Assembly (NCBI GenBank): GCA_963790045.1
Contig: CAWBMS010000011.1
Coordinates: forward strand, 260,715-324,714
Source: Ignavibacteriota bacterium
GTDB lineage: Bacteria > Bacteroidota > Ignavibacteria > UBA10030
Reading direction: 5' to 3'
Length of the DNA stretch: 64,000 bases
Made by a program: the position numbers and the translations under genes. Under the pieces are notes generated by a model. The model was not told where the DNA came from and made no database searches. It saw only the letters and a program-made list of their open reading frames with translations. Numbering within the stretch: position 1 is the first letter of the stretch; each line of letters starts with the position of its first letter. Positions 2,470 to 43,004 of the stretch are shown here, piece after piece.

Positions 2470-2483
2470 AGGGTAAAAGCAAC

Positions 2484-3251: not shown

Positions 3252-3361
3252 TTGTTGCAATATTTATTGAAGAAAATTTGTGAGACGATGATCGGTGATG
3301 AATCTGTTCAACCGATATTACAAGAGGTAAATGTTCTTTTGAGAATGATGGGGCGTGGCGA

Positions 3362-25805: not shown

Positions 25806-25818
25806 AAAGGAATTTTGT

Positions 25819-26094
25819 ATGACCAAAGAACAGCAAATTAAAGAACTGACGGTTATTCCTGGCGTCGGAAAATCGATCGCCCAGAATTTTTGGAACATCG
25901 GGATCAAAAAAGTGTCAGATTTGCAAGGCAAGAAGCCGGAACAATTATATAAAAAGCTGGAAGCGTTTGAAGGTGGTCATCAAGACCGGTGCGTGTTATA
26001 TGTCTTTCGATGTGCTGTCTATTTTGCAGAGACCGAGGGAAAGATACGCGATACGGAAAAACTCAAATGGTGGAATTGGAAAGATAAAAAGTAA
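25819..26094 (+). CDS. Helix-hairpin-helix protein (Cdd1-like)
   Basis: LTVIPGVGKSIA HhH motif, DRCVLYVFRCAVYFA and WWNWKD. Confidence 0.8.
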   Translation: MTKEQQIKELTVIPGVGKSIAQNFWNIGIKKVSDLQGKKPEQLYKKLEAFEGGHQDRCVLYVFRCAVYFAETEGKIRDTEKLKWWNWKDKK

Positions 26095-26129
26095 AACCTT
26101 CTACTGTTGTTCCCTTCCAAACTCACTTT

Positions 26130-27581
26130 ATGCAAAAACTTCTTGAACTTATCGACATATCCGTTTCATTCGGAACAAACATCGTCCTTCACAATTTGAA
26201 TTTTACGATTCACCACGGTGAACAATGGGCGATTATTGGAAGTTCGGGAAGCGGCAAAACGACATTAGTCCGTGTTCTCGAAGGATCGATCTTTTTTACC
26301 GGCGAAGTTCTTTTTCATTCTTCGAAAACAAATGATCGAAAAGTTTCTCTTGCGCTCATCGAGCAACAGCATCGCTTTAAAAATTATTCTTCATCAGGGG
26401 AATTCTATTATCAACAGCGATTTCATTCCGTCGATGCAGACGATGCAATCACCGTCGAAACATTATTACGCGAATCCAATGAACTTTCCGAAGATGAACG
26501 GCAATATTGGCTGAAGGAATTGCATCTCACTCCGTTATTGCAGATGCCGCTCATTCAATTATCCAACGGCGAAAATAAACGATTGCAAATTGCTCAGGCA
26601 TTACTTAAAAATCCGGACGTCATCATTCTCGACAATCCGTTTATCGGATTGGATGCGGAAGGATGTTTGCGATTGAATGCCATTCTGAAAAGCATTTGTG
26701 ATGCCGGCACACATATCATTTTATTATCATCTCGGAAAACTATTCCCGGCTGTATCACACACGTTGCCGAATTGAGACAAGGAACCATCGTGCGCGCAGT
26801 GCCGAAAGATCAATTCCAAAACGAACAATCTTCTGAATATAAAAGAATCAAGATGCTTCCCGCTACAATTCCCCATGATCTTTTTTATGAAGTCCCATTT
26901 TCAACTGCCGTAAAAATGGTAAACGTTCATGTGCAATATGGTGAGAAGAAAATATTAGACAGCGTGAATTGGGAAGTGAAACGCGGGGAATGCTGGTGCG
27001 TTGCGGGACCAAACGGAGCAGGGAAATCAACATTGTTAAGTCTCATTACGGCAGATAATCCGCAGTCATACGCAAACGAACTATATTTGTTCGATAGACG
27101 ACGCGGCAGCGGTGAAACAATTTGGGATATTAAACGCAATATCGGATTTGTTTCGCCGGAACTGCATCTCTATTTTCCGTATAACGCAATTTGTGATGAT
27201 GTGATTGCTTCCGGATTGTTCGATTCAATCGGCGTCTTCCGAAAAATATCCGATCAAGAACAAAATCAAATCGAGTGGTGGATTGATGCACTGCATTTTC
27301 AAGATGTTCGTTCATCCATGTTATCATCTTTGCCGCTTGGACAACAGCGGATGGTTTTTCTTGCTCGAGCATTAATAAAAAATCCTCCATTACTTATTTT
27401 AGATGAACCATGCCAAGGGTTGGATGAGGAACAAGCCGGATTATTCAAACAACTTGTTGACGATAGTTGCAGAACATTGCATTCGACATTAATTTATGTC
27501 AGTCACGTTGAAAATGATATTCCTTCCTGTGTAACGCATATTCTACGGTTGGAACAAGGAAAAGTCGTTGATGGTAATTGA
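26130..27581 (+). CDS. ModF-like ABC ATP-binding protein (two ABC domains)
   Basis: GSSGSGKT and GPNGAGKS, LSNGE, GSGETIWDIK, LDEPCQG. Confidence 0.88.
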   Translation: MQKLLELIDISVSFGTNIVLHNLNFTIHHGEQWAIIGSSGSGKTTLVRVLEGSIFFTGEVLFHSSKTNDRKVSLALIEQQHRFKNYSSSGEFYYQQRFHSVDADDAITVETLLRESNELSEDERQYWLKELHLTPLLQMPLIQLSNGENKRLQIAQALLKNPDVIILDNPFIGLDAEGCLRLNAILKSICDAGTHIILLSSRKTIPGCITHVAELRQGTIVRAVPKDQFQNEQSSEYKRIKMLPATIPHDLFYEVPFSTAVKMVNVHVQYGEKKILDSVNWEVKRGECWCVAGPNGAGKSTLLSLITADNPQSYANELYLFDRRRGSGETIWDIKRNIGFVSPELHLYFPYNAICDDVIASGLFDSIGVFRKISDQEQNQIEWWIDALHFQDVRSSMLSSLPLGQQRMVFLARALIKNPPLLILDEPCQGLDEEQAGLFKQLVDDSCRTLHSTLIYVSHVENDIPSCVTHILRLEQGKVVDGN

Positions 27582-27625
27582 TTCACTTTGTGTTGTTATG
27601 TACATTCATAGAGTAATAGAAAATA

Positions 27626-28312
27626 ATGGAAAAAGAGAAGAATGCTATGACAATAACCAAACAAGAAATACTAAATGCATTTTTATTTCGGCATGCATGT
27701 AAAGAATTCGATCCCACTAAAAAAATATCGGAAGAGGATTTTCAGTTTATTCTGGAAACAGCGCGGTTATCTCCCAGTTCGTTCGGATTCGAACCATGGA
27801 AATTTATTGTCATTCAGGATAAAACATTGCGAGAAGAATTACGAACGGTTACTTGGGGAGCACAAAAAACGCTGCCGACGGCAAGTCATTATATTGCTGT
27901 GCTTGCACGCACCAAAGCAGATTTGCTTGCCGATTCAGATTATATTCAATCGATGATGCGCGAGACACATCACGTGCCGGAGGAAGCACGGCAACAGCGC
28001 ACGAAGAAGTATGCAAATTTTCTCGAACATGATTTTAACTTATTGGAAAGCGAGCGTGTGATATTCGATTGGGCAGGTAAACAAACATACATTGCACTCG
28101 GTAATATGATGACGGCGGCTGCTCTGATTGGAATCGATTCCTGCCCGATTGAAGGTTTCAATCGCGAAGATGTCGATCGTGTCCTCGATTCAAAAGGATT
28201 GTTAGAAAACGGCAAATATGGAATTTCCTATATGGTTGCTTTCGGTTACCGAATCAATCAGCCGAGAGAAAAAACACGCCAGCCGCTGGAAGCGATTGTA
28301 ACATATTATTGA
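27626..28312 (+). CDS. NAD(P)H-dependent nitroreductase family protein
   Basis: RHACKEFD, SPSSFGFEPW and DSCPIEGF motifs. Confidence 0.92.
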   Translation: MEKEKNAMTITKQEILNAFLFRHACKEFDPTKKISEEDFQFILETARLSPSSFGFEPWKFIVIQDKTLREELRTVTWGAQKTLPTASHYIAVLARTKADLLADSDYIQSMMRETHHVPEEARQQRTKKYANFLEHDFNLLESERVIFDWAGKQTYIALGNMMTAAALIGIDSCPIEGFNREDVDRVLDSKGLLENGKYGISYMVAFGYRINQPREKTRQPLEAIVTYY

Positions 28313-28435
28313 ATAGTTGCTGTTGTTTGCATAGGTAATGGAGTGAATATATCGGATAGCAATAAACGATTTGCTTTTCAAAGCATCAATAGATAAACTA
28401 TGCGTTCAGATATAACTATGTAAGGGAACATTCCA

Positions 28436-29050
28436 ATGAAAAATAAAATTCTTCTTTGCACTCTTTTGTTATTTCCGCTCATCGTATGGTCGCAGCCCAT
28501 TCCGGATGCCGTTGTGATTGTGCATCAAAATACGATTAACGGATTCTTTAATGCCATCGGGCCTGTGAGCGGAACGGAACCGTATAATGTGCTGGGAATG
28601 CATGGCGATTACACATGGACTCTGGAGCATGCCCGCATCGAATTAAAACCGAATCAGGCAAAATTTATTGCGGATGCGCATATTAAGATCGGGCCGCTCT
28701 GGTACGGCTCGGTGGCGAACGGCGATGTGGAGGTAAAATATCATCCCGATAACAACCGTATTTCGATCAAGGTGTTAAAAGCGACGTTTGAAGTGTACAT
28801 CAGCGTTTTCGGCAAGAAAATTCATATTACCGATATTGATGCATCGCGGTTTTATCGTCCGGAGTTTGAATTTGCCGGGCCGCAGCCCATTCAGGCAAGT
28901 ATCGAGGTGGCATTACCCGGCAATAATAAGAAAATGATCTTCATTACACCGTACACGCAATACATGACGATCGAAAAAGAGCGTATCGTTGTGACATCGC
29001 AGTTAAAATTTTCCGATCAACCGCCGGCACCACAGCACGATCATCAATAA
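28436..29050 (+). CDS. Hypothetical secreted protein
   Basis: Signal peptide, beta-rich 204-aa ORF with RBS. Confidence 0.65.
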   Translation: MKNKILLCTLLLFPLIVWSQPIPDAVVIVHQNTINGFFNAIGPVSGTEPYNVLGMHGDYTWTLEHARIELKPNQAKFIADAHIKIGPLWYGSVANGDVEVKYHPDNNRISIKVLKATFEVYISVFGKKIHITDIDASRFYRPEFEFAGPQPIQASIEVALPGNNKKMIFITPYTQYMTIEKERIVVTSQLKFSDQPPAPQHDHQ

Positions 29051-29065
29051 ATTTCTTGAATCCTT

Positions 29066-29431
29066 ATGGCGCATCCTCATTTGGCACTCATTAATAAATT
29101 CTTTGCGGCATATAACCAGCATGATCTTGCCGCGATGCGCGAAGTCATGTCTGATGATGTTAAATGGTTCTTTCCGGGAATACATCCGTTGAGCGGAACG
29201 AAAAATGGAATCCCTGAAGTTGTTGCATTTTTTGATTTGATGGCGGATGGGATGAAAAAATCGTTTGCCAGAGCAGAAAAGTTAGTTGTAGGCAGCAATG
29301 ATGATTATGTGGTCGAAAGCCAGCATATCTGGATGACGGTCGATGGAGTTACATCGGAACATTACTGGTGTGTGCTGTGGAAGTTTGAAAACGGAAAAAT
29401 CGTGGAAGGAAAACATTTCGTGGCGGAATAA
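29066..29431 (+). CDS. SnoaL/NTF2-like protein
   Basis: FFAAYNQHDL...DDVKW..PG.HPLSG...GKIVE. Confidence 0.85.
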   Translation: MAHPHLALINKFFAAYNQHDLAAMREVMSDDVKWFFPGIHPLSGTKNGIPEVVAFFDLMADGMKKSFARAEKLVVGSNDDYVVESQHIWMTVDGVTSEHYWCVLWKFENGKIVEGKHFVAE

Positions 29432-29495
29432 GAAATCCTCTTTCCCAAGAATTATTAAAAGCCGTCTTAAAAATGTTCAATCTTAGAGGTTGCAC

Positions 29496-29565
29496 TGTCA
29501 TGCCCGCATGTTGTAAGCGGGCATCCAGAATTCTGGACTCCCGATAAAAACATTCGGGAGTGACA
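29496..29565. repeat. REP-like double palindrome (TGTCA...TGACA class)
   Basis: TGTCATGCCCGC-N-GCGGGCATCCAG-AATT-CTGGACTCCCG-N-CGGGAGTGACA between convergent genes. Confidence 0.75.
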
Positions 29566-29586
29566 CAGTATTCTTTATTATTATTT

Positions 29587-30708
29587 CTAATTCTTCTTCA
29601 GCACTTTTTCGTAATATTGTTCGTACTGTCCGACAATTTTATCCGATTCAAATTCTTTTGCCCGCTTCCGGGCTGCTTCTGCAAAGAGCTTGTGCTTGAC
29701 TGGATTGGTAAGAAGATCGATCGCATATCGCGCCATCCGGTCGATGTCACCGAATTCAGCAATGAAACCCGTTTCGCCATGCACTTGCAGTTCCGGCAAT
29801 CCGCCGACGCTGGAGGAAATCACCGGCACTTCGCATGCCATGGCTTCCAATGCAGATAATCCAAAACTTTCTGATTGGCTCGGCATAAGAAAAAGATCGG
29901 CAGAAGAAAGTATGGGAACCAACTCTACTTGCTTTCCCAAAAACTTCACACTGTCTTGAATGCCTAATTCCCGCGAGAGAATCTCGCATTGCGAACGATC
30001 CGGGCCATCGCCGACTAAGATGAGCACGCTGGGGATTTTCTTTTGCACTTCGTTAAAAATGCGGATCACATCCTGCACGCGCTTCACCGGACGGAAATTG
30101 GAGGTATGCAAGAGAATCTTTTTATCTGGAGGTGCAATACTGGGGCAGATGGTGTTCTTGTGCATACGAAAGTATTTTTCCGTATCGATAAAATTCGGTA
30201 TTACTTCAATATCTTTATTGATGCCATAATTCGTCAGTGTCTTCTCTCTTAAAAAACGAGATACAGCGGTGACGCCATCGCTTTGTTCGATGCTGAATTT
30301 TAGAATCGGCAAGAAACTTGGCTCCAATCCCACTAAAGTAATATCCGTGCCGTGCAGTGTAGTAATAATCTTGATTGATTGTTCTTTTAAAATTTGTTGC
30401 GCAAGATATGCACTGGTTGCATGAGGAATAGCGTAGTGGCAGTGCAGCAGATCGAGCTTTTCGTACCGTGCTACTTCCACCATTTTACTGGCAAGTGCAA
30501 GCGTGTAAAGCGGAAACTCAAACACAGGATAATTGGACATTTCCACTTCGTGATACACAATATTTTCTTGATAACCCGTCAGCCGCATCGGCAGGGCATA
30601 GCTGATAAAATGAATGGTATGCCCGCGTTTGGCAAGCGCTTTACCGAGTTCCGTGGCAACAACGCCGCTGCCGCCGTAGGTAGGATAACATGTTACGCCG
30701 ATTTTCAT
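29587..30708 (-). CDS. bshA: N-acetyl-alpha-D-glucosaminyl L-malate synthase
   Basis: MKIGVTCYPTYGGSG, HYAIPHA, TLHGTD, SNFRPVKR and ESFGL motifs. Confidence 0.95.
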   Translation of the reverse strand: MKIGVTCYPTYGGSGVVATELGKALAKRGHTIHFISYALPMRLTGYQENIVYHEVEMSNYPVFEFPLYTLALASKMVEVARYEKLDLLHCHYAIPHATSAYLAQQILKEQSIKIITTLHGTDITLVGLEPSFLPILKFSIEQSDGVTAVSRFLREKTLTNYGINKDIEVIPNFIDTEKYFRMHKNTICPSIAPPDKKILLHTSNFRPVKRVQDVIRIFNEVQKKIPSVLILVGDGPDRSQCEILSRELGIQDSVKFLGKQVELVPILSSADLFLMPSQSESFGLSALEAMACEVPVISSSVGGLPELQVHGETGFIAEFGDIDRMARYAIDLLTNPVKHKLFAEAARKRAKEFESDKIVGQYEQYYEKVLKKN

Positions 30709-30891
30709 ACTCTATCTCCGTGATGCAATAACATAGAAAGAAATGTCCTCAGTTAAAAGTTAATAGTGAGCGGTTCATTGTGAAATTAGGAGTTAGGGTT
30801 GGCTGTTCGTGGTGAGGAACGATACCATAAAGACCTTCTATGTGCTTTACAAAAATAAAAATATGTACGGAGTGTAAAGAAAAACGCAGGG

Positions 30892-31017
30892 CTGGATTCC
30901 CATTAACAACGTATGGGAATGACACCTTGGCCTATTTTGTCATTCCCAGCCGGAGGCATTATATAGAATCGCGCAACGCACGATACATTTTTAAGCTTCC
31001 AGCTATCGGGAATCCAG
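30892..31017. repeat. REP-like element pair of the same family as 29496-29565
   Basis: CTGGATTCCC...GGGAATGAC followed by GTCATTCCC...GGGAATCCAG. Confidence 0.65.
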
Positions 31018-31380
31018 AACAGAGGTACAGATAAAGAAAATAAGCAGTGAAAGAATAATTATAGGGCTGGATGTTCCATCATAAAGATTGCCGGATAGCC
31101 TGGTCACCCAAAGGCGGAATGGTTCGTGATGAGGCACAGTATAAAAAATGAAAAAAGTACTTGACTTTAAAAAAAATTAATAACAACATAGATCAACGAT
31201 TTAAATCCAAACAATAATCAGCAGCAAAATTTCTTTACGGGTAAGGTGGTTATGGAGGATGTTGGGAAAAATTGTATGAAGCACTCCGTTGGCGAGGTGT
31301 CTTCCGTTCGTTATCTCCTTTTGAAAGCAAAAAATATTCGCAAGAGAGAGTTATGTTCGTAAGAACATACGGAGAACAGT

Positions 31381-31854
31381 ATGAAACAGATTTTTATTTT
31401 CACTTTGATATTGATGGCCATCGCCGGATGCAGCAAAACCAGCAACCCCGTATCTCCGCCGAGTGATACTGTTCAATCCGGTAACTTGCAGTTCACATTT
31501 TCCATTCCCCAATCCACTTATGGAACTCGCGACACCCTCGTTGCATCGATGAAAGTATATAATCCAGAGGACACGGCGGTAAGTTTTCATGTCCCTGTGT
31601 GTTGGCCGATAGCTTGGTTTACAGTTGTGGACAGCAGCGGAACGACAAGACTCAGTTATAGCGCACCAAGTGATTTGGGCTGTAATTCCATAGCTATATA
31701 CAAGATTTCTCCGCATCAATCACAACAGATATTTCTGTTACAGGTCGAGTTTCCTATAGTTGCTCTTGATTCAACAAAGAAATTACAAAGTTCATACGTC
31801 TTGACAGTGAAAAACGTCGTTGGGACATTTTCACTAAAGTTCGCGGTCGATTAA
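31381..31854 (+). CDS. Putative lipoprotein (Ig-like fold, BsuPI-like)
   Basis: Lipobox IAGC; Cys pair in a beta-rich domain. Confidence 0.65.
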   Translation: MKQIFIFTLILMAIAGCSKTSNPVSPPSDTVQSGNLQFTFSIPQSTYGTRDTLVASMKVYNPEDTAVSFHVPVCWPIAWFTVVDSSGTTRLSYSAPSDLGCNSIAIYKISPHQSQQIFLLQVEFPIVALDSTKKLQSSYVLTVKNVVGTFSLKFAVD

Positions 31855-31876
31855 ATTCGTATGATGCCGAACAGAG

Positions 31877-32065
31877 AAATGGCATTGGGAATGAGAGAAA
31901 TGACGTTGGGAACGACACAAATGGTGTTGGGAATGAGAGAAATGACGTGCGGAACGAGAGAAATGGCCTCGGGAAAGAAACAAATGGCGCGGGGAATTGA
32001 ATAATTGCTCTGGCGAAAGGAATAAATGGACTGCCGGAAGGAATAAATGGCGTTGGTTATAGTAT
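31877..32065. repeat. Degenerate 21-bp tandem repeat, 9 units
   Basis: Units start at 31877, 31898, 31919, 31940, 31961, 31982, 32003, 32024 and 32045; consensus approximately AAATGGCGTTGGGAAtGAGAG. Confidence 0.85.
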
Positions 32066-32262
32066 TTTTGACAGAGGGAACGGTATTTTGACGCTGGGAA
32101 TGGAATAAGTGGTGAGCGGAATGGTAGATTGGAGAAAAAAAAGAATAAATGAGGCAGACGGACAATAAAATGTTTATGAGAAGAGAAGAAATAAAAACGA
32201 AATGCATGATAATAAGAATTAGACGCAATGCATATTTCAAACCCTTAAAATAATCTATTCAA

Positions 32263-34161
32263 ATGAACGAACAAAAGATTAAACTTAACTTTTTATCTTT
32301 GACACCGCAGAAGTTTTCATATACTGTATACAGAAAGGAATACGTTCACGCTGATTTATGTGATACCGTCTTTAAATACAGATTGCCAAACAACTTAGGC
32401 GAAGATAAGTTTTGTGACTTTTCGGTTTCATTTGAAGCCAAAGAAGGTTTCAACCAATTTGAATGCAAACAAGACACAAACAAGGATTTAACGCTTAAAG
32501 TTATTCATTATAACTTGACAAATTTAATTCGGAAAAATGGGATTGATTTTTCATTAGGCAATAAATTTTATGATAGGCATATTGATTTTACTTTAAAGAC
32601 GCATACAAAAGGAAAAGAAATAATCAGTTTGAATTCTTATTTCCTCAAACAAGAAAACTTGTATGGTTTTCTTGTTGATTTTTTCTTCAAGGTAAACGAG
32701 GATGAGAAGCTTGATAGGGAAATTCTAAAATTAAGTTTGGCTTTAGGTGGCGATGGTAGGTCAAACAAAAACTACTACTCTGACCATTTCCATAAAATTC
32801 AATCCTTCATCAATACTACCTTAAAACAGATTGACACTTTTAAAATAGGTGAAACAGATTTCAAGATTCACTCTGACTTGCTTGAGCTCAATTCAGGTTC
32901 GTTAAGCAAAAAAGTTTTCAGATTTAAGGAAGACAAAAACGATTTTAACCAATTTAACGGTTTGAGAAAATACGGTCCATACAGCGAAGTAACCCAGTCT
33001 GTGAAATATGCTTTTATTTTTGAAGATAAATACAAATCATTCGCAAATAATTTGTTTTTCAGCTTAATTGGGAAAAGCAATCCAGGAACATTCTCTGGAA
33101 TGACACAATTTTTCGGATTGCCATTCGCGACAGACCTTGTGAAGAGAATTCCTTTGACTAGTTACAGTAAAGAAGCTGTGATGAAGGCGGTTAAGGAGGT
33201 AATTGTTTTTCGTAATGAAAACCATAATGACAAAATCATTGCAATATTTTTAGAACCTGATGGGTTTGATGGTGTTGCCGATGATGTTTCACCATACTAC
33301 AATCTTAAATTCTATCTGACCAAAGAAAATATTCCTGTTCAAGTTGTTAGAGATGACAATTCAAATAACGCAAATGCGTTGAAGTGGAGCACTTCAAATA
33401 TTGGCTTACAAATATTTTCCAAGCTTGGCGGCATTCCTTGGATATTAAAGCCATCCCAAAATCATTGTTTAATTTTGGGTATTGGCTCATCCTATGATAA
33501 AGGAGAAGATGGTTCAATAAAAAAATATTATGCCTATTCGGTTTGCTTAGATTCGACAGGGCTTTACAAAAAATTGGATATACTTGCAGAGGAAGCAACT
33601 AAAGAAAAATATTTAGCAAACCTCGGTGAAAAACTTATTGAGCTTTTTAAAACGCCTGAATACAACCAATACAAGAAATGTGCTTTACACATTTCTGAAT
33701 CTGTAACACATGACGCTGTTACTTCAATTCAATCAGCACTGACAAAAATATCAAGCATTGAATTCAAGGTTTTGAAAATAAATACTCATCACCAGTTTTT
33801 TGGTTACAGTAACCACAATACTTATGTGCCTTACGAAAGCACATACATAAAACTTGCACGGAATGAATACTTGGTTTGGTTTGATGGATTAGTTCCAGGC
33901 AAAGAAAATATTTACCAGAAAGTTGGCAATCCAATTCATATTAAATTCCTGCATTCAGAAAATGTTACACCTGAATATGATTTAGAGTATTTGCAAGATG
34001 CAATTAACCTTTCAGGGGCAAACTGGAGAGGTTTCAATGCAAGGCAAACTCCAATTTCAATTTACTATGCAAAGATTGTCGCTGACTACACAGCGGCTTT
34101 TGCACACTTTGAAGATTATGACAAATCACAATTCTCAAACAATTTACCCTGGTTTCTATAA
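32263..34161 (+). CDS. Prokaryotic Argonaute, catalytically inactive, long-B-like
   Basis: MID 5'-phosphate pocket YYNLK...IPVQVV...QIFSKLGGIPW; PIWI LILGIG, GANWRGFNA...PISIYYA; catalytic Asp positions read GIG and HISE. Confidence 0.88.
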   Translation: MNEQKIKLNFLSLTPQKFSYTVYRKEYVHADLCDTVFKYRLPNNLGEDKFCDFSVSFEAKEGFNQFECKQDTNKDLTLKVIHYNLTNLIRKNGIDFSLGNKFYDRHIDFTLKTHTKGKEIISLNSYFLKQENLYGFLVDFFFKVNEDEKLDREILKLSLALGGDGRSNKNYYSDHFHKIQSFINTTLKQIDTFKIGETDFKIHSDLLELNSGSLSKKVFRFKEDKNDFNQFNGLRKYGPYSEVTQSVKYAFIFEDKYKSFANNLFFSLIGKSNPGTFSGMTQFFGLPFATDLVKRIPLTSYSKEAVMKAVKEVIVFRNENHNDKIIAIFLEPDGFDGVADDVSPYYNLKFYLTKENIPVQVVRDDNSNNANALKWSTSNIGLQIFSKLGGIPWILKPSQNHCLILGIGSSYDKGEDGSIKKYYAYSVCLDSTGLYKKLDILAEEATKEKYLANLGEKLIELFKTPEYNQYKKCALHISESVTHDAVTSIQSALTKISSIEFKVLKINTHHQFFGYSNHNTYVPYESTYIKLARNEYLVWFDGLVPGKENIYQKVGNPIHIKFLHSENVTPEYDLEYLQDAINLSGANWRGFNARQTPISIYYAKIVADYTAAFAHFEDYDKSQFSNNLPWFL

Positions 34162-34164
34162 AAG

Positions 34165-35265
34165 ATGAAAATGGAAATTAAAGAAAACAATATAGTATTT
34201 CTGTTAGGTGCTGGGTGCAGCAAGGAAGCGGGTATTCCAATATCAAACGAAATGGTAGAAAAAGTTGAAGAAAAAATTAAAAAAGAATGGAAAGGATCCA
34301 ATGACCTATATTACTATCTAAAAAGTAGTATTCAATATTCTGAGGGTATATTCGGACGATTTGATAATTCATTCAATATTGAAAAACTATTAATTGTAAT
34401 GGGGCATATTGAACAGCGAGATGAAAACATTATCTATCCATTTATTGGAAGCTGGAATATTCGTTTGCCAGAAGTAGCTGGGAAAGATTTTAAAAGAATT
34501 ACAGAGCTGAAAAATTTAATTAAAAACGAACTTTACGAATGGGTCACGCCCAAAGATATTATAAGTAAGGCTGAATATTATTCAGGTTTTAAAAACTTTG
34601 CAGAAGGCGTTGGAAAAACGATAAAAGTATTTTCACTAAATTATGACCAATGCTTTGAAAAGATTGTCGGTGATGAAAATGTAGAACAAGGGTTTGATGT
34701 GAAAACAAATGAGTGGCAACAATCAAACTTTGATACAGAAAGACAATTATTGTTCAAGTTATATAAACTACATGGATCAATTAATTGGTATGTTGATTCT
34801 GAAAACGGCAAATTAAAACAAAGTAGTTATCCTGTATTAAACGACCCCAAACTTATTTTTGGAATAGAGGCAAAACTTAATTCAAGTGATCCGTTCTTTT
34901 ACTATACGGCTGAGTTCAGGCGTTGGATGCTTGATAACGATTGCAAACTTATTGTTACAATTGGTTATAGTTATGCTGATCCCTATATCAACAACTTGAT
35001 TGCACAGGCAATTATCAACAAACCGACGAGACAAGTCCTTAATATTACTTATCTTGACCCCAAAAGTTCTGATGCTGAAAAAAACAAACTAATTGAAGAT
35101 ATTACCTTAAACAAATTGGACCTAAAACACGATTACAACAAAGACGGGGCAAAGCAATTTCAATTACACATTCAGGGAGCAAAAGACTTCCTAAATGAAA
35201 ATATTAAAACTGATTTTTTCACAAAATATTTTAAAGATGAAACCGATGCACCATTTGGGAAATAA
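34165..35265 (+). CDS. SIR2-family (SIR2_2-like) NADase
   Basis: FLLGAGCS, SLNYD, KLHGS and IGYSYADPYIN motifs; 3 bp after the pAgo stop. Confidence 0.9.
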   Translation: MKMEIKENNIVFLLGAGCSKEAGIPISNEMVEKVEEKIKKEWKGSNDLYYYLKSSIQYSEGIFGRFDNSFNIEKLLIVMGHIEQRDENIIYPFIGSWNIRLPEVAGKDFKRITELKNLIKNELYEWVTPKDIISKAEYYSGFKNFAEGVGKTIKVFSLNYDQCFEKIVGDENVEQGFDVKTNEWQQSNFDTERQLLFKLYKLHGSINWYVDSENGKLKQSSYPVLNDPKLIFGIEAKLNSSDPFFYYTAEFRRWMLDNDCKLIVTIGYSYADPYINNLIAQAIINKPTRQVLNITYLDPKSSDAEKNKLIEDITLNKLDLKHDYNKDGAKQFQLHIQGAKDFLNENIKTDFFTKYFKDETDAPFGK

Positions 35266-35475
35266 AAATGTAAATTTTATCTCGTTCCCAATTTGCATGT
35301 GAACGGATGTAGAAAAAGTTCTGCTTAAGGTAATGCGAAATAAAAGCGGAAAAACATAGAACATAAAAATATATTAACATATAAAATTATAACGAGCACG
35401 GAAACATAACACTGGTAGAGAAACGAAACAACATTTACTAAACAACCATTATCCATTAACAGAAAGGGAACCACA

Positions 35476-36168
35476 ATGGAAGAAGTCGATGTAGTAATTC
35501 AGGATGCCAATGTACTTTTAGCCACGGCTAAAAAATATGCAGCGGGAGCTTCCACAGACGGCATTGACGCCGATGCCATCCAGGGATTAAGCGATGCTCA
35601 TGACGACCTTTTAGATAAAAATACAAAACAGCAGAAAGCTGTAAAGGACGTCAACACACTGACGGAAGCGCAAAACGATTCGCTTGACAGCGGTTTGACG
35701 TTGATCCGCAAAGTGCAAAACGCCGGCAAATCCGTGTACGGGGAAAGCAATAAGCCGATGATGAAATTATTAGATGTCGGCGGCGATGCGCCTACTTCCG
35801 TAAAGAAAATGACGACCAAACTTGTTTACATGAAAGATGTGGCAACGGATAAGCTTGCCGATCTGAAGAAGGGCGGTGTGAAAGACAGCGACCTTCCACA
35901 GTTCGATACCATTGCTGCTGCGTTAGCAGAAAACGATGCGACGCAGGAAAAAGCAAAGAAGGCACAGAAGGCGGCAACGCTGGTACGCGATGAAGCGCTC
36001 GATGCGTTAAAAAAAGCTGTGCGTAAAGTACGCAACAATGCAAAATCCGTGTTTGCGGATAACCAGTCCGTGCTGATCGAGTTTGAGCCGGTGGCAGCCG
36101 GACGCGGCAGCGCGAAAGCCAAACCGGAACCTGCACCTGCGACGACAACAGATACACAGAAGAAGTGA
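35476..36168 (+). CDS. Hypothetical all-helical protein with an internal duplication
   Basis: RBS AAAGGGA; halves align (LDSGLTLIRKVQNAGKSVYG versus LDALKKAVRKVRNNAKSVFA). Confidence 0.75.
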   Translation: MEEVDVVIQDANVLLATAKKYAAGASTDGIDADAIQGLSDAHDDLLDKNTKQQKAVKDVNTLTEAQNDSLDSGLTLIRKVQNAGKSVYGESNKPMMKLLDVGGDAPTSVKKMTTKLVYMKDVATDKLADLKKGGVKDSDLPQFDTIAAALAENDATQEKAKKAQKAATLVRDEALDALKKAVRKVRNNAKSVFADNQSVLIEFEPVAAGRGSAKAKPEPAPATTTDTQKK

Positions 36169-36207
36169 TGAAGAAGGAAATAGGAATTAGGAGTTAGCAT
36201 TACACCG

Positions 36208-36253
36208 AACCCCCCTATCCCCCCTTCGTATGAAGGGGGGAGTAAGAGGGGTT
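36208..36253. repeat. GC-rich palindrome just upstream of the DUF559 gene
   Basis: TCCCCCCTTC-GTAT-GAAGGGGGGA inside an outer AACCCC/GGGGTT pair. Confidence 0.7.
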
Positions 36254-36260
36254 AGAAGTT

Positions 36261-36635
36261 ATGGTACGCATTTATAACAAAAAACAGTTTCAAAAACGCC
36301 GACGGGCGTTGCGAAACAATATGCCAAAGTCTGAAATTGTTCTATGGTCGAAGATCAAGAACAGACAGATATATGGTGAACGATTTTTACGCCAGTATGG
36401 TGTCGATCAATATGTTTTGGATTTCTATTGTCCGCGTTTGAAGCTTGCCATTGAAGTGGATGGAGATTCTCATTTTATGCCCGGAGCGGAAGAGCAAGAC
36501 AAATCCCGGCAAGAATATGTTGAAGCATTAGGGATTCATTTTTTGAGATTTACAAATGTTGATATATTGGAAAATCTTGATGGAGTTTGTCAAAGGATAT
36601 TCCAAGTAATTGAAAAGTACAAAAGCAAAGAATAG
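36261..36635 (+). CDS. DUF559 (Vsr-like) endonuclease domain protein
   Basis: RRALRNNM..SE..LW, FLRQ, YVLDFYC...LAIEVDG.SH, LRFTN. Confidence 0.9.
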   Translation: MVRIYNKKQFQKRRRALRNNMPKSEIVLWSKIKNRQIYGERFLRQYGVDQYVLDFYCPRLKLAIEVDGDSHFMPGAEEQDKSRQEYVEALGIHFLRFTNVDILENLDGVCQRIFQVIEKYKSKE

Positions 36636-36690
36636 AAGAAAATCCACGTTGTTCAGAAGTTCCGCCCGCAGGGGAGAAAATTGCAAGCGC

Positions 36691-36738
36691 ATGTGACCGT
36701 CACCTGCAAAGCTTAAACCAAGTAGGTGACGGTCACAT
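36691..36738. repeat. Perfect 15-bp inverted repeat (REP-like or bidirectional terminator)
   Basis: ATGTGACCGTCACCT (36691-36705) and AGGTGACGGTCACAT (36724-36738). Confidence 0.75.
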
Positions 36739-36751
36739 ACCCAACAAAGAA

Positions 36752-37585
36752 TCAATAATCCCGCTTCATAAAATACCACGAAGCAAGCCCGTACAGCAAC
36801 GCTGTGGAACCCAGGGAATACACGTACGGCATAATGGTGAACACGGCAGGGGAAAAAGGACTTTTACCAATCACCAACGTTGAGTTACTGAGCATGGCGC
36901 TTAATTGCGGCGTGATGTAATAGAGTCCATCAAGAATGTGATGATAGATAACGTTATCCGATAAGCGGAATAAAAAATGTTCTCGTCCTTCCAACAAAGA
37001 AGAAATAAAAACAAAGATGAACGTTAACAGAATCGAAAAACCGGAACTGCGCGTTGTCAATCCGACGAGCGCGACAACAGAAAACAAGCATGCAAATGCA
37101 AATATTACATAAATAACTGACGACAAAAACGCCCAGTTCCACACACCGAGTTTCAATCCGAAGACAAGCCAGATGCCGACGAAAAAGTAAGCAAGATTTG
37201 CGGCGATGCCTGCGGTTGCACCTACAGCGCGTGCCATCAACATTTCTGCGCGGAGTAACGGCTTGCTGAGAAAGAGATCGATAGTTCCTTTCTCTAACAT
37301 CGAAGGAATAAGTCCTGCCACGCCGAAAATTCCGAATAAAATAATCCAGAAGACGGAAGTTGAATGCATCTGCATCAATATCGTCTGCGCGATATCGATG
37401 TCGCCGGACATTTGCGGTGCAATCGGTTTGCCGAAGATGGCGATCATATTCGGATCATCTGCCGGATGCCCGATGGCAAACCCAAAGAATCCGATGATAA
37501 TTGTTGCGACGGCGAAATAAAAAATCAAAGTGCCTTTGCGAATGGATTCGCTAAAGGTAAAACGAAACATGCCCCAGAATCTCAC
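36752..37585 (-). CDS. ABC transporter permease
   Basis: Multiple TM helices; EKGTIDLFLSKP motif. Confidence 0.85.
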   Translation of the reverse strand: MRFWGMFRFTFSESIRKGTLIFYFAVATIIIGFFGFAIGHPADDPNMIAIFGKPIAPQMSGDIDIAQTILMQMHSTSVFWIILFGIFGVAGLIPSMLEKGTIDLFLSKPLLRAEMLMARAVGATAGIAANLAYFFVGIWLVFGLKLGVWNWAFLSSVIYVIFAFACLFSVVALVGLTTRSSGFSILLTFIFVFISSLLEGREHFLFRLSDNVIYHHILDGLYYITPQLSAMLSNSTLVIGKSPFSPAVFTIMPYVYSLGSTALLYGLASWYFMKRDY

Positions 37586-38514
37586 TGCGCTTCTCCTTTC
37601 ACCAATTGAATGAAATAATCTTCCAGCGAAGTTTTTTGCTGGGTCATTCCTTCAATGGCAATACCGGCAGCGCGGAGTGCATCGATAATGGTGTTCAACT
37701 CCGATTTATCATTCAATGTTACCGTTAATAAATTTTCTGAATATGAAACAGACGGAAGCGAAGTTTTGAATCGCTCTTCCAATTCCAGCGGCAAATGCGC
37801 GGAAAGTTGAATGGCGTAAACGAGCTTTTGCGAATTGATCTCCGCAATGGTTCCGGTTTTAATCACTTCGCCTTTATTCAAAATTGCAACGCGGTCGCTA
37901 ATGAGCTCTACTTCAGAAAGTAAATGTGAATTTAAAAAGATGGTCTTGCCTTCCGCTTTCAATCCGAACAACATGTCGCGAATTTCTTTTCGTCCCACCG
38001 GATCAACGCCATCTGTTGGTTCATCTAAAAAAATAATTTTCGGATCATTGATGAGCGCCTGCGCCAATCCCAACCGCTGTAACATTCCTTTGGAAAACTT
38101 TTTCGTTTTCACTTTTTTCCAATCGGTCAAACCGACACGATCCAGCAAAGTCGTTGCGCGTTCGCGCAATACTTGTTCCGGCAAACCATTTAATCTGCCG
38201 AAAAACAACAGCGTATCGTAAGCGTTGAGGAAGGAAGGATACTTGTGGCTTTCCGGCAAGTAACCGATTTCTTCCTTGAGCGCCCGCTCGCCGAGCGAAT
38301 GCCCGAGCACGGTTGCCGATCCCGAAGTCGGGAAGGCAATCGAGAGCAATAATTTGATGAAGGTTGTTTTTCCAGCGCCGTTCGGCCCCAGCAGTCCAAA
38401 AATTTCGCCTTGATGGACGGTTAAGGAAACTTTATTGAGCGCAAGGATGTTCTTTTTAGTGAACGTACCAGAGCGATACTGCTTGGTGAGTTCGAGAGTT
38501 TGAATTGCTTCCAT
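37582..38514 (-). CDS. ABC transporter ATP-binding protein
   Basis: GPNGAGKT, FSKGM and LDEPT motifs. Confidence 0.93.
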   Translation of the reverse strand: MEAIQTLELTKQYRSGTFTKKNILALNKVSLTVHQGEIFGLLGPNGAGKTTFIKLLLSIAFPTSGSATVLGHSLGERALKEEIGYLPESHKYPSFLNAYDTLLFFGRLNGLPEQVLRERATTLLDRVGLTDWKKVKTKKFSKGMLQRLGLAQALINDPKIIFLDEPTDGVDPVGRKEIRDMLFGLKAEGKTIFLNSHLLSEVELISDRVAILNKGEVIKTGTIAEINSQKLVYAIQLSAHLPLELEERFKTSLPSVSYSENLLTVTLNDKSELNTIIDALRAAGIAIEGMTQQKTSLEDYFIQLVKGEAQ

Positions 38515-38667
38515 AGTGCATTCAAGGTAAGTAAAAATGTGGAGTGGTTCAATTTGAAAATTTTAAAGCCTTCTTGATTCAAAAGGAATTTAGCGGGATA
38601 TTGTAGAAGAGAGCCGATAGTGGCTCTCATTTTTTTGGAGTAATATAAGACCTGAGAGGTCGTATTT

Positions 38668-39066
38668 ATGCTTCAGCTTTCTAAAAAAGTTGAATACGGA
38701 TTGATTGCCTTGCGGCACATGGCGATGAACCCGCAAGTGTACACCGCAAAAGAAATTGCGGTGAAGTACGATATTTCGTACGAGCTTCTTGCAAAAGTTT
38801 TGCAGAAGCTGACGAGAGCGGGAATTGTCACTTCGCTGCAAGGCATGCGCGGCGGTTACACGCTTGCACAGAAGCCGAGCGAAGTGCAGGTAGGGCGCAT
38901 CATCGATATTATTGAAGACGAGAAGGCGACGATTGCGGAATGCTATGCAGAAGGAAGTGATAATTGTTCGCTGTTCGATGCATGCACGATTCGCCGGCCG
39001 TTGGAAAAAGTTCAACAGAACTTGAATACGCTTTTAGAAAAAACGACGCTGGAACAAATTATATAG
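38668..39066 (+). CDS. Rrf2 family regulator (IscR/SufR-like, three Cys)
   Basis: SKKVEYGL, G.RGGY.LA, C-x7-C-x5-C; heads the suf operon. Confidence 0.9.
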   Translation: MLQLSKKVEYGLIALRHMAMNPQVYTAKEIAVKYDISYELLAKVLQKLTRAGIVTSLQGMRGGYTLAQKPSEVQVGRIIDIIEDEKATIAECYAEGSDNCSLFDACTIRRPLEKVQQNLNTLLEKTTLEQII

Positions 39067-39077
39067 TTTGAAAAATT

Positions 39078-39395
39078 ATGGCAACACATTATCCAGTATA
39101 TACTATTCCACACGAAGAATTTCTTGCGTTTATGAAATCGAAATTTCAATTGTATCATCTTTCGAATGTTTTCTTTCGGGATTTGCAATATGGTGTGATA
39201 GAATTTCTTCAACGCCGAGGGTTCTCTGTAAAATATGGGGCATCGGAAGCGGCAGCGAATGATTTGATTGCCTCGCTGGAAGAAAAAAATATCTTGAAAA
39301 AATTAGATGGGCAAACATGGCTGTTAAATTATCCATCCTTCAAGCTGATCCCGATGAAGCGTATGGATATTGCGATACCGGCAGCGGTGCGTTGA
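39078..39395 (+). CDS. Hypothetical protein within the suf operon
   Basis: 105-aa ORF tightly spaced between Rrf2 and sufB. Confidence 0.7.
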   Translation: MATHYPVYTIPHEEFLAFMKSKFQLYHLSNVFFRDLQYGVIEFLQRRGFSVKYGASEAAANDLIASLEEKNILKKLDGQTWLLNYPSFKLIPMKRMDIAIPAAVR

Positions 39396-39410
39396 AAGAA
39401 AAGGATTCCT

Positions 39411-40858
39411 ATGACGACAGAAACAAACACGATTGAAGAACTTGCTGAGAAAGAATATAAGTACGGCTTTGTGACCGATATTGAATCGGACAGCATTCGC
39501 AAAGGATTAAATGAAGATGTTGTTCGTTTGATCTCGGAACGAAAAGGCGAACCGGCATGGCTCTTAGAATGGCGATTGAAAGCGTACCGTCATTGGCTGA
39601 CGATGGAAGAACCGCATTGGCCCAATGTCAAGTTTCCACCGATTGATTATCAATCGATTGTCTATTATTCCGCGCCGAAACAAAAAGTGAAACTCAACAG
39701 TTTGGACGAAGTCGATCCTGAATTATTGAAGACGTACGAGAAGCTGGGAATTTCACTCCGCGAGCAAGAATGGCTCGCCGGTGTTGCGGTGGATGCGGTG
39801 TTTGACAGCGTTTCAGTGGCCACCACATTTAAAGAAAAATTAAGCGAGCTTGGAATTATATTCTGTTCGTTTTCCGAAGCGGTAAAGAATCATCCCGATC
39901 TGGTAAAGCAATATCTTGGTTCGGTTGTTCCGGCGAACGATAATTTCTTTGCCGCGCTGAATGCGGCAGTATTTAGCGATGGTTCATTCTGCTTTATTCC
40001 AAAAGGCGTACATTGCCCGATGGAGTTATCCACGTACTTCCGAATCAATGCAGCAGAGACGGGACAGTTTGAGCGCACATTGATTGTTGCGGAAGACGAT
40101 GCGTATGTAAGTTATTTAGAGGGATGCACCGCGCCTATTCGCGACACAAATCAATTGCATGCAGCGGTTGTGGAATTGGTGGCGTTAGATAACGCGCGCA
40201 TAAAATATTCCACTGTGCAAAACTGGTATCCCGGTGATAAAGAAGGCAAAGGTGGCATTTACAATTTTGTGACCAAGCGCGGAAAATGTGCCGGCGATGA
40301 ATTCCAAAATTTCATGGACGCAGGTGGAAACCGGTTCTTCGATCACGTGGAAATATCCGGGCGTTCTGTTGATTGGCGATAATTCTGTTGGCGAATTTTA
40401 TTCCGTTGCGGTGGCAAACAATTATCAGCAGGCCGATACCGGAACGAAAATGATTCACATCGGAAAAAATACGAAGAGCACGATTGTCTCGAAAGGTATT
40501 TCCGCCGGACACGGACAAAATTCCTATCGCGGTTTGGTGGAAGTAAAAAAGAATGCCGTCAATGCGCAGGAATTTTTCGCAGTGCGATTCGTTATTGCTC
40601 GGTGATAAATGCGGCGCGCATACGTTTCCATATATCGAAGTAAAAAATACTTCTTCGAAAGTTGAACACGAAGCATCGACATCGAAAATCGGCGAAGATC
40701 AGGTTTTCTATTGTAAGCAACGGGGCATTTCAGCGGAAGATGCGGTGAATTTAATTGTGAACGGGTTTTGCAAAGAAGTTTTCCGAGAGTTGCCGATGGA
40801 GTTTGCTGTAGAAGCGCAACGGCTGCTTGGCGTAAGTTTGGAAGGAAGCGTTGGATAA
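39411..40858 (+). CDS. sufB: Fe-S cluster assembly protein SufB, two +1 frameshifts (~40298, ~40567)
   Basis: [35 protein letters not shown] and EHEASTSKI...LEGSVG spread over three frames. Confidence 0.95.
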
Positions 40859-40896
40859 AAAAGTTTTCGATTTGACGACAAGAAAAGGACAATGAA

Positions 40897-41661
40897 ATGA
40901 GTTTGTTAGAAATAAAAAATATCCATGCATCAGTGAACGGCACAGAGATTCTTCACGGTATCAATCTAACGGTGAATGCCGGAGAAGTGCATGCGATAAT
41001 GGGGCCGAATGGTTCCGGTAAAAGCACGCTTGCCGGTGTGCTCGCAGGCAAGGAAGCGTACGTCGTTACCGAAGGAAGCGTGCAGTATGAAGGAAAAGAT
41101 TTGCTCGCGTTGCAGCCGGAAGAACGTGCACGCGAAGGGTTGTTCCTCGCGTTTCAATATCCGGTAGAAATTCCCGGCGTCAATAATTCCTATTTTCTCA
41201 AAGCGGCACTGAATGCTATTCGCAAGCACAAAGGATTGGAAGAATTGGACGCGATGGATTTTCTTGCGCTCGTAAAGAATAAAGTAAAGTTGGTAGAGAT
41301 GGATGAGAGTTTGCTCAATCGAGCGGTGAACGAAGGATTCTCCGGCGGCGAGAAAAAACGTAACGAGATTTTTCACATGGCGGTCTTAGATCCGCTGCTT
41401 TCCATTCTTGATGAAACCGATTCTGGGCTTGATATTGACGCGCTGCGCATTGTGGCGAACGGCGTCAATCAATTACGGCGAAAAGACAACGCAACAATTG
41501 TTGTCACGCACTATCAGCGATTGTTAGAATATATTGTTCCCGATTTTGTCCACGTGCTTGCAGATGGAAAAATTGTGAAGTCCGGCGGAAAAGAATTGGC
41601 GCTGGAACTTGAAGAACGCGGCTACGATTGGCTTCGCAATTCCGTGGAACAGGAAGCGTAG
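40897..41661 (+). CDS. sufC: Fe-S cluster assembly ATPase
   Basis: GPNGSGKS, FQYPVEIPG, FSGGEKKR and DETDSGLD motifs. Confidence 0.97.
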   Translation: MSLLEIKNIHASVNGTEILHGINLTVNAGEVHAIMGPNGSGKSTLAGVLAGKEAYVVTEGSVQYEGKDLLALQPEERAREGLFLAFQYPVEIPGVNNSYFLKAALNAIRKHKGLEELDAMDFLALVKNKVKLVEMDESLLNRAVNEGFSGGEKKRNEIFHMAVLDPLLSILDETDSGLDIDALRIVANGVNQLRRKDNATIVVTHYQRLLEYIVPDFVHVLADGKIVKSGGKELALELEERGYDWLRNSVEQEA

Positions 41662-41669
41662 GAGCAACG

Positions 41670-42989
41670 ATGCCGACGACAGAAAAAAATATTCAGTGGT
41701 ATCAAACAAAGTTTCACGAGTTTGAACAGGGATTGAACGGCGAGAAATTAACGCCGTTGCATGCGTTGCGCCGCAAGGCGATAGAACAATTTTCCGCCGT
41801 CGGATTCCCGACAGCGAAGCAGGAAGAGTGGCGCTTTACCAATGTTTCGCCTGTAAGCAAAATAGAATTCCAACCCGTGCTACATTATGAACGAGAGGGA
41901 ATGAAGGAGGCGGACATTGCGCATGCTTTTTTGCCGGATGCAATTCGGTTAGTGTTTGTCAACGGATTCTATGCTAAAGAGTTTTCCGATCTTCGGTTTG
42001 TTCCGAAGAATGTTGTTATCGAAAATCTTGCAAGCGCAAAAAAGAAGTATGCGGATGTGATTCAGCAATCTCTCGGTAAAGGTGTGAAGACGGATGAAAA
42101 CGCTTTTACGGCGCTGAATGCGGCTTTCATTCAAGATGGAACGTTTGTGCATGTGCCGAAAGGCGTTGCCGTTGAAAAACCATTGCAACTTCTGTTCGTA
42201 TCGACACAAAACACATCTCCATTTATTTCGCTGCCAAGAAATATTATCCGTGTTGATGAGAACGCGCAGTTGACGGTGTTTGAAAGTTATGTTCATCGGA
42301 TGGATAATATTTATTGCACGAATGTTGCGACGGAATTCTTCCTTAGCGAACATGCCAATGTGGAATATGTAAAATTGCAGACGGAAAGCATCAACGCATT
42401 TCATATCAGCAATACAGTTGTTCGGCAGAAAACGGCAAGCGTGTATCGTTCTAATTCTATTGCATTGGGCGGAGCTATCGCGCGAAACAATATTACCGCG
42501 TCGTTGGATGCGGAACACATAGAATGTACACTCAACGGATTAACTCTTGCCGCTGGAACCCAGCTCATCGACCATCACACCACTATCGATCATGCCAATC
42601 CGAATTGTATTAGCCACGAATTGTATAAATTTGTTCTTGATGAAAAATCGCGTGCCGTGTTTAACGGGAAAGTCTATGTACGCAAAGACGCGCAGAAGAC
42701 GGACGCAAAGCAAACAAACAAAACATTGCTGCTCTCCGATGAAGCGACGATCAACACGAAGCCGCAATTGGAAATTTTTGCGGACGATGTGAAATGTACG
42801 CACGGCGCGGCGGTGGGACAGTTGGATGCAGAACAAATATTTTATCTCCGTTCGCGCGGGCTTGGAGAAGCAGAAGCGCGTGAAATGCTGACCTACGCAT
42901 TTGCAGGCGATGTCGTGAATCGAATTGGGAATGAAACCATCCGCACGTTTGTGGAAACATCCGTGCTTGAACGGTCAAATCACGCATAA
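41670..42989 (+). CDS. sufD: Fe-S cluster assembly protein
   Basis: EEWRFT and KPQLEIFADDVKCTHGA motifs. Confidence 0.95.
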   Translation: MPTTEKNIQWYQTKFHEFEQGLNGEKLTPLHALRRKAIEQFSAVGFPTAKQEEWRFTNVSPVSKIEFQPVLHYEREGMKEADIAHAFLPDAIRLVFVNGFYAKEFSDLRFVPKNVVIENLASAKKKYADVIQQSLGKGVKTDENAFTALNAAFIQDGTFVHVPKGVAVEKPLQLLFVSTQNTSPFISLPRNIIRVDENAQLTVFESYVHRMDNIYCTNVATEFFLSEHANVEYVKLQTESINAFHISNTVVRQKTASVYRSNSIALGGAIARNNITASLDAEHIECTLNGLTLAAGTQLIDHHTTIDHANPNCISHELYKFVLDEKSRAVFNGKVYVRKDAQKTDAKQTNKTLLLSDEATINTKPQLEIFADDVKCTHGAAVGQLDAEQIFYLRSRGLGEAEAREMLTYAFAGDVVNRIGNETIRTFVETSVLERSNHA

Positions 42990-43004
42990 GAATACGAGAA
43001 CTTC

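Follow-up and report, generated by a model that had tools for sequence, protein, structure and literature searches.

The stretch of DNA analysed here (the window) comprises 64,000 nucleotides of an Ignavibacteriota bacterium (assembly GCA_963790045.1, contig CAWBMS010000011.1, positions 260,715 to 324,714 of the forward strand) and carries adjacent genes for a prokaryotic Argonaute (pAgo) and a SIR2 protein. With good confidence, the two genes form a BPAS, the name given to an operon of a long-B pAgo and an og_44 Sir2 (Song et al., 2023, Nat Commun, PMC10620215), in which a long-B pAgo sensor with a dead nuclease and no PAZ domain would act with a Sir2 effector that hydrolyses nicotinamide adenine dinucleotide (NAD+) to bring about abortive infection. 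Several features can be seen directly in the locus and its relatives: how the pAgo is built from domains, a PIWI site that is dead, a MID pocket and a SIR2 active site that are both intact, genes that are strictly paired across phyla, and indications of horizontal acquisition. The window locus is a further member of an already described, widespread family, and its architecture is not itself new.

Both genes lie on the plus strand. The first (32263..34161) is an open reading frame (ORF) with an ATG start that encodes the pAgo of 632 amino acids. The second (34165..35265) also begins with ATG and encodes the SIR2 protein of 366 amino acids, and only 3 bp separate the pAgo stop from the SIR2 start on the same strand. 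The GC content is 0.314–0.346 in each 500-nt bin from 32000 to 35499, a range that covers both genes, and 0.382–0.490 across the remaining 500-nt bins from 24000 to 43999. An earlier note on this DNA, made from the sequence alone, had described genes of these lengths 3 bp apart, both AT-richer than their flanks, and the coordinates and base composition bear this out. There is no sign of a third component in the cassette.

The 632-residue protein matches the Pfam Piwi domain over residues 343–610 (3.9e-12, exceeding the curated cut-off) and the PADLOC model pAgo_II PDLC02381 over profile positions 2–617 of 617 (713 bits). An AlphaFold2 model built on 34 homologues (predicted local distance difference test (pLDDT) 87.2, predicted template modelling (pTM) score 0.82) is a complete bilobed Argonaute fold, as Foldseek and VIA-align comparisons also indicate. 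The top Foldseek match of the model is RsAgo (E 3.5e-27, TM 0.72–0.74). VIA-align matched it to AfAgo with Z 33.3 over model residues 209–632 and to RsAgo with Z 28.9 over 577 aligned residues spanning 4–632. By sequence, the nearest solved structures are all long-B, namely EcAgo (2.3e-26), AfAgo (7.8e-26) and RsAgo (1.2e-12), and a long-A Ago (1.6e-8) and the SPARSA short Ago (1.9e-5) are more distant. Judged by these best matches and by a PADLOC model held in common with EbAgo (see below), the window pAgo is of the long-B type. AlphaFold and PADLOC checks had been proposed in the earlier note; the PIWI/MID fold is predicted by the former, and in the latter both proteins match defence models over their full length.

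The N-terminal 231 residues of the pAgo were also folded on their own (pLDDT 90.7). The best match of this N-lobe is AfAgo-N, a PAZ-less N-L1-L2 protein (Z 13.7, root-mean-square deviation 3.2, 190 residues aligned), with model residues 3–215 corresponding to AfAgo-N chain residues 18–246. Lobes of the APAZ type gave Z 12.0 (a chain of the SiAgo system) and 10.6 (SPARSA APAZ), and RsAgo gave Z 10.0. The 209 residues of model span 5–213 correspond to 303 residues in RsAgo (21–323), 309 in TtAgo (5–313) and 339 in CbAgo (1–339), and the L1-L2 segment measures 25 residues in the window pAgo and 25–26 residues in 34/34 family members. In the model the PAZ domain is absent, because the L1-L2 segment is so short and the N-lobe spans far less than those of RsAgo, TtAgo and CbAgo. 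The PAZ or reduced PAZ that canonical four-domain long-B proteins carry between L1 and L2 is therefore missing. A short pAgo consists of MID and PIWI only, and here the polypeptide that contains MID-PIWI also includes a folded N-L1-L2 lobe of ~210 residues.

The N and L1 domains occupy residues ~1–145 (32263..32697), with boundaries drawn approximately from the secondary structure of the model and the AfAgo-N match. In the position of PAZ stands the 25-residue linker, residues 146–170 (32698..32772), as placed by the structural and family alignments, followed by the L2 linker domain, residues ~171–229 (32773..32949), with a helix at 171–189 and strands at 192–210 in the model. The MID domain, residues ~230–399 (32950..33459), was placed by alignments to AfAgo and EcAgo, the MID start of EcAgo (T308) aligning near window residue 230. 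The inactive PIWI domain takes up residues ~400–632 (33460..34158), the EcAgo tetrad having been mapped onto it by profile alignment. All of these domains are encoded on the plus strand. The estimate in the earlier note of about 200 residues before the L2/MID region, with little or no PAZ, was thus roughly right as to length, and the PAZ proves to be absent. The window pAgo is a single-chain, PAZ-less, catalytically inactive long-B-type Argonaute (N-L1-L2-MID-PIWI).

The residues Y345, K349, Q360 and K387 of the MID pocket (33295–33423) are all present and are invariant in 34/34 family members. They align to the AfAgo stretch YY.LK...Q...K, the residues of which we take to be its 5'-phosphate ligands. 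Long-B pAgos are described as carrying the canonical MID YK motif (Ryazansky et al., 2018). In EcAgo the catalytic tetrad reads G492/E532/Q568/D700 (PMC13535254). Alignment to the EcAgo profile places the DEDX positions of the window pAgo at G408 (33484–33486), E448 (33604–33606), S478 (33694–33696) and K604 (34072–34074), all on the plus strand. At position 408, G is found in 34/34 family members, and at position 478 all 34 have P or S. As both Asp positions of the DEDX tetrad are replaced (G408 and S478), the PIWI nuclease site is dead on this alignment. The pocket and the Asp positions reading GIG (G406-I407-G408) and HISE (H476-I477-S478-E479) had been recognized in the earlier note.

The 366-residue protein matches Pfam SIR2_2 over residues 155–312 (1.4e-10, again exceeding the curated cut-off). 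The PADLOC model Aga_SIR2 PDLC02408, which describes a stand-alone protein, spans it end to end (409 bits, residues 3–364 against profile positions 1–343 of 343), and the SIR2-APAZ-type models (Aga_SIR2-PNTD, Class I) match residues 5–38 only. The fusion of SIR2 to APAZ that is characteristic of SPARSA is not found, and this PADLOC result and the gene order agree with the earlier description of a downstream SIR2 without APAZ. The motifs listed there are also all present: GAGCS, G15-A16-G17-C18-S19 (34207–34221); NYD, N159-Y160-D161 (34639–34647); H203 (34771–34773) within K201-L-H203-G-S205; and GYS, G267-Y268-S269 (34963–34971), on the plus strand. In an alignment of 34 homologues drawn from directly behind related pAgos, G15, A16, G17, S19, N159, D161, H203, G267 and Y268 are invariant in 34/34, and the catalytic Asn, N159 in the window protein, falls at 154–166 across family members. 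By sequence, the solved structures closest to the window SIR2 are those of SIR2-like defence proteins (8w9l, 3.5e-25; 8yhx; 8j4u). The product of 34165..35265 is thus predicted to be a bAgaS-type stand-alone SIR2 (Sir2_2) effector, a putative NADase with a complete active site and without APAZ.

The pairing of the two genes extends far beyond the window. A scan of one genome per species gave 191 confirmed stretches encoding a pAgo relative, and 79 loci were kept for analysis. In 78 of the 79 the pAgo is followed directly by a SIR2 homologue, and the only locus without one (L030) is on a contig that terminates within the pAgo. In 76/79 loci the SIR2 homologue starts 0–35 nt past the end of the pAgo match. 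At L024 the SIR2 match starts 174 nt downstream, and at L073 the best SIR2 piece lies 202 nt downstream and a smaller one lies 12 nt past the pAgo match. Hosts of the pair include Bacteroidota, Gammaproteobacteria, Chloroflexota, Acidobacteriota, Planctomycetota, Firmicutes and others. Median ORF lengths in these loci are 636 amino acids for the pAgo and 358 for the SIR2. In a search of 5.8 billion proteins, 116/120 among the matches listed are 625–651 amino acids long, and the nearest database relative among them is 83% identical to the window pAgo. All-against-all HMMER searches returned 810 cluster representatives at E<=1e-3, 453 at 1e-10 and 169 at 1e-30. Full-length matches of ~610–655 amino acids predominate to about 1e-50, and weaker than this, relatives of 750–780 amino acids with ~90–130 additional N-terminal residues appear.

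Several loci depart from this arrangement. In two Firmicutes loci from Anoxybacillus / Anoxybacteroides (L065 and L066, 1224–1877 and 6007–8348), the pAgo ORF is only 422 amino acids long and covers MID-PIWI (residues 214–632), with the SIR2 directly downstream. The N-lobe stretch (residues 1–216, 29% identity) lies ~4 kb upstream on the same strand, and between the two parts runs an oppositely oriented gene for a heavy-metal P-type ATPase. Either the gene has been rearranged in these loci, or the BPAS there is naturally split. In a Prolixibacteraceae metagenome-assembled genome (MAG; L078, 7389–9990), an insertion of ~2.6 kb with an IS66-family transposase breaks the pAgo after residue 468, and the downstream SIR2 is intact. 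A different pairing was found in a genome of the same order as the window genome (L082 in G033, 844–4127), where a pAgo of 675 amino acids (PADLOC PDLC02385, 367 bits; 24% identity to the window pAgo) overlaps a SIR2 of 422 amino acids (PDLC02414, 294 bits). Systems of a pAgo and a non-APAZ SIR2 therefore fall into at least two distinct families, and 'long-B plus Sir2' is not one uniform family.

Relatives of both proteins have been described previously. Full-length models for the two were already present in PADLOC v2 (2023), PDLC02381 comprising 617 positions. Ryazansky et al. (2018) counted 31 long pAgos without PAZ and also introduced og_44 as a SIR2 orthogroup. Manakova et al. (2024, NAR, PMC10954474) described single-chain long-B pAgos in which PAZ is reduced or lost, and they name ThsA-like Sir2 as one of the two major downstream partner types. 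EbAgo, from Epilithonimonas bovis (WP_076783222.1 / A0A1U7PYU4; locus L017 in the present set), figures in their panel on the presence and absence of PAZ among single-chain long-B pAgos. This protein belongs to another species and has diverged in sequence, but it shares 43% identity with the window pAgo over residues 6–632, matches the same PADLOC model PDLC02381 (887 bits versus 713) and has a SIR2 gene immediately downstream, as in the window.

The functional model for the pair is GbBPAS (Song et al., 2023). In this system the Sir2 is reported to be toxic alone and the pAgo to suppress its toxicity, a plasmid with the CloDF13 origin leads to NAD+ loss and cell death, and the mutation N155A in the Sir2 abolishes both. 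GbAgo and GbbAgaS co-purify, unlike the BPAN and BPAM pairs. As far as the published description goes, GbBPAS resembles the window pair in having an inactive long-B-type pAgo that is followed, within a simple operon, by a stand-alone Sir2_2 protein (og_44), and its catalytic N155 is equivalent in position to N159 of the window SIR2. The text of that paper describes long-B pAgos with all four domains, whereas the window pAgo lacks PAZ. The hosts also differ, GbBPAS coming from Gammaproteobacteria and the window host grouping with Bacteroidota through its pAgo relatives. A gammaproteobacterial SIR2 of the family (P0314, 348 amino acids, from a Pseudomonadales MAG) has its catalytic Asn exactly at position 155; this is consistent with GbbAgaS belonging to the same SIR2 family and does not identify P0314 as GbbAgaS.

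Three further systems frame the comparison. In fAfAgo of Archaeoglobus fulgidus (AfAgo-N plus AfAgo, PDB 8pvv/8ok9), which provides the best structural match for both lobes, the Argonaute is likewise PAZ-less, inactive and long-B, but it is split into two polypeptides, whereas the window pAgo is a single chain. Its downstream effector is a fusion with a helical domain (Af1317 type) according to Manakova et al. (2024), where the window has a Sir2. SPARSA (PDB 8in8/8jkz/8y7z) also couples an inactive pAgo with a SIR2 NADase, an activity that is predicted for the window pair, and the shape of its pAgo with APAZ resembles a PAZ-less long Ago (Z ~29 for MID-PIWI and ~10 for APAZ). In SPARSA, however, the lobe that resembles N-L1-L2 (APAZ) belongs to the partner protein, where it is fused to the SIR2, whereas in the window it is the Argonaute that carries the lobe, and a free SIR2 is encoded downstream; the two SIR2 families are only distantly related by PADLOC and likewise in Song et al. 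(2023). EcBPAN (EcAgo and the nuclease EcbAgaN; NAR, 2026, PMC13535254, PDB 23wq) contains the nearest solved full-length homologue by sequence. It shares the dead tetrad, with a matching first substitution (G492 to G408), and the order of pAgo followed by effector. EcAgo has 731 amino acids and a hairpin-like PAZ of ~60 residues, compared with 632 amino acids and no PAZ in the window pAgo, and its effector is a PD-(D/E)XK nuclease. EcBPAN assembles into an 8:8 complex, and a stable binary complex does not form. The same paper still rates long-B systems as the least understood pAgo group, and no BPAS structure or later mechanistic work was found in literature searches.

By analogy with GbBPAS and other inactive pAgos, a course of action can be proposed in which RNA guides, DNA targets, binding between Argonaute and Sir2, NAD+ depletion and cell death would each have a part. 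The pAgo would most likely use its MID pocket to load short RNA guides with a 5'-phosphate; inactive pAgos guided by 5'-phosphorylated RNA are cited by Song et al. (2023), and fAfAgo adds to the analogy. The guided pAgo would scan for complementary plasmid or phage DNA and, because its nuclease site is dead and PAZ is missing, would act as a sensor only. Most likely it would hold the SIR2 inactive until a target is bound, at which point the SIR2 would switch from the inhibited to the active state and hydrolyse NAD+. The infected cell would then stop or die for want of NAD+, the output of GbBPAS on sensing an invader and that expected for the window pair. The NAD+-depleting role in abortive infection put forward in the earlier note thus stands as the best reading by homology. 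A prediction of the complex between pAgo and SIR2 scored 0.20, with the mark at 0.32, and bears neither for nor against binding.

It may also be, though this is a tentative suggestion that is more doubtful than the role itself, that the PAZ-less BPAS family is activated unlike any pAgo system seen so far. A Sir2 that is free and carries no APAZ and no helical adaptor would be docked constitutively on the compact Argonaute and be released or oligomerized on pairing of guide and target. It might dock, for example, on the surface that the loss of PAZ has left near the conserved 25-residue L1-L2 linker. Such a mode, if true, would set the family apart from the SPARSA tetramer as well as from the 8:8 BPAN assembly. 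The literature searches returned no BPAS structure, and GbAgo and GbbAgaS co-purify, unlike the BPAN and BPAM pairs.

The cassette has probably been acquired horizontally into a variable spot of the genome, as indicated by the dip in GC content, the spacing of flanking blocks in relatives and the mismatch with a same-genus genome at this site. Only one Piwi gene occurs in the window genome (2.89 Mb, 20 contigs, 88.5% complete). The window pAgo was not found in any of the 24 same-family genomes searched, and among 40 relative genomes searched a pAgo match was found in one same-order genome only, to a different pAgo of 24% identity. Neighbourhoods were compared at the DNA level in five relatives, in three of which the glycosyltransferase gene (window 29587–30708) lies close to the next shared block. 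In G002 and G004 it is 0.2–0.4 kb from the Rrf2-type gene preceding the suf genes, and in G005 it is 0.7 kb from a block running from an ABC-transporter permease gene to the Rrf2-type gene; the corresponding block pairs are 6.3–7.9 kb apart in the window. In the same-genus genome (G001), homology ends upstream at ~32125 and resumes downstream at 35376, with different sequence between, and both G001 contigs break within the non-shared interval. The GC profile and these homology breaks delimit the acquired cassette approximately, as the low-GC segment 32125..35376 without counterpart in G001. No integrase and no convincing flanking direct repeats were found around it, and the only tRNA gene is 13 kb away.

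The alternatives to a BPAS differ in what they question. The earlier note had raised the possibility of a compact long-B/Sir2 variant or of an arrangement intermediate between the long-B and short systems, and one could suppose an undescribed arrangement in which a compact N-L1-L2-MID-PIWI sensor and a free Sir2 act unlike both BPAS and SPARSA. The absence of PAZ, an N-lobe that fits APAZ-type lobes almost as well as long-Ago N-lobes (Z 12.0 and 10.6 versus 10.0 for RsAgo) and the lack of a BPAS structure in the literature searched would suit this idea. The novelty is not supported, since it is preceded by the full-length PADLOC v2 models, the 78/79 paired loci and the publication of the architecture with the family member EbAgo as an example (Manakova et al., 2024). 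PAZ-less long pAgos had been listed in 2018 (Ryazansky et al., 2018), and the gene order from pAgo to effector is the BPAS order of Song et al. (2023). The window pAgo falls, as far as best matches and family models reach, in a characterized long-B/Sir2 clade, and an undescribed architecture is improbable.

SIR2-fold enzymes catalyse several chemistries, so that the window SIR2 might act otherwise than by bulk NAD+ hydrolysis, as an ADP-ribosyltransferase or deacylase on a specific target or as a maker of signalling nucleotides. Ryazansky et al. (2018) grouped pAgo-linked SIR2 proteins with putative nucleases, which also leaves room for such roles. They are nevertheless very unlikely, because the tested BPAS homologue lowers cellular NAD+, an effect abolished by mutation of the Asn matching N159 (Song et al., 2023), because the NAD-binding and catalytic residues are invariant, and because further defence SIR2 systems cited in PMC10620215 and PMC13535254 likewise deplete NAD+. 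A similarly small probability attaches to the view that the cassette is a silent or decaying passenger with no defence role in this genome. This would fit a low-GC foreign segment whose pAgo was not found in the 24 same-family genomes searched and in which a sigma-70-like scan recognized no promoter, and related loci do decay, one pAgo being cut by an IS66 element and two separated from their N-lobe. In the window, however, both ORFs are full length and stop-free, all family-invariant residues are kept and the two genes retain the 3-bp spacing that is typical of the family.

Some points can be set against the assignment to BPAS itself. NCBIfam returned only sub-threshold matches for both proteins, its RsAgo-type model scoring 41 bits against a cut-off of 700. 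In the scan for sigma-70-like promoters and for terminators nothing stood out in the cassette (5 promoter-like sites, fewer than the shuffle mean of 13.6, and 3 terminator-like sites against a background of 1.9), and such a scan is blind to, and hence uninformative for, promoters of the Bacteroidota type. The placement of the window pair in the GbBPAS subclade appears from shared architecture, family models and the position of the Asn, not from a direct alignment to GbAgo. GbBPAS could also belong to the second pairing of the PDLC02385/PDLC02414 type.

Around the cassette, the following features were noted. Directly upstream of the pAgo, window 31852–32050 (to ~32125) contains ~9 degenerate 21-bp tandem units with a consensus near GAACGAGAGAAATGGCGTTGG and a 63-bp super-period, which fall within a minus-strand ORF of 129 amino acids (31851..32240) with heptad-like peptide repeats. 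The array is ~84% identical to its counterpart in G001, and because it is common to that genome it is part of the host backbone rather than of the cassette. A 16-nt inverted match between this array (31906–31921) and the spacer past the SIR2 stop (35276–35291) was rejected as chance, being 1 of 20 similar weak pairs. In G001 the cassette position holds a different AT-rich gene (L089, G001:C63, 2548–3351, minus strand) of at least 267 amino acids, cut by the contig end, which has only a sub-threshold match to Pfam DUF3800 (18.6 bits against a cut-off of 21) and no PADLOC match. This suggests that the site takes variable cargo; the status of a defence hotspot is not supported by the matches of this gene. 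Downstream, the next gene (35476–36168) has normal GC content and only a sub-threshold NCBIfam match to the PQLLE family, and it is also present in G001. One kilobase downstream of the cassette, window 36261–36635 encodes a DUF559 protein of 124 amino acids with a Vsr-like endonuclease fold (Pfam 4.1e-28) and a weak PADLOC match to a methyl-directed restriction enzyme model. Because its GC content is normal, this gene probably lies outside the cassette.

For annotation, both genes merit the label of a BPAS-type Argonaute/Sir2 abortive-infection system. The locus adds one intact member to a very widespread family and is not set apart from its relatives. The family is worth structural work, as the literature searched holds no structure that accounts for the activation of a Sir2 by a PAZ-less long-B Argonaute, and its compact sensor of 632 amino acids could interest tool builders.

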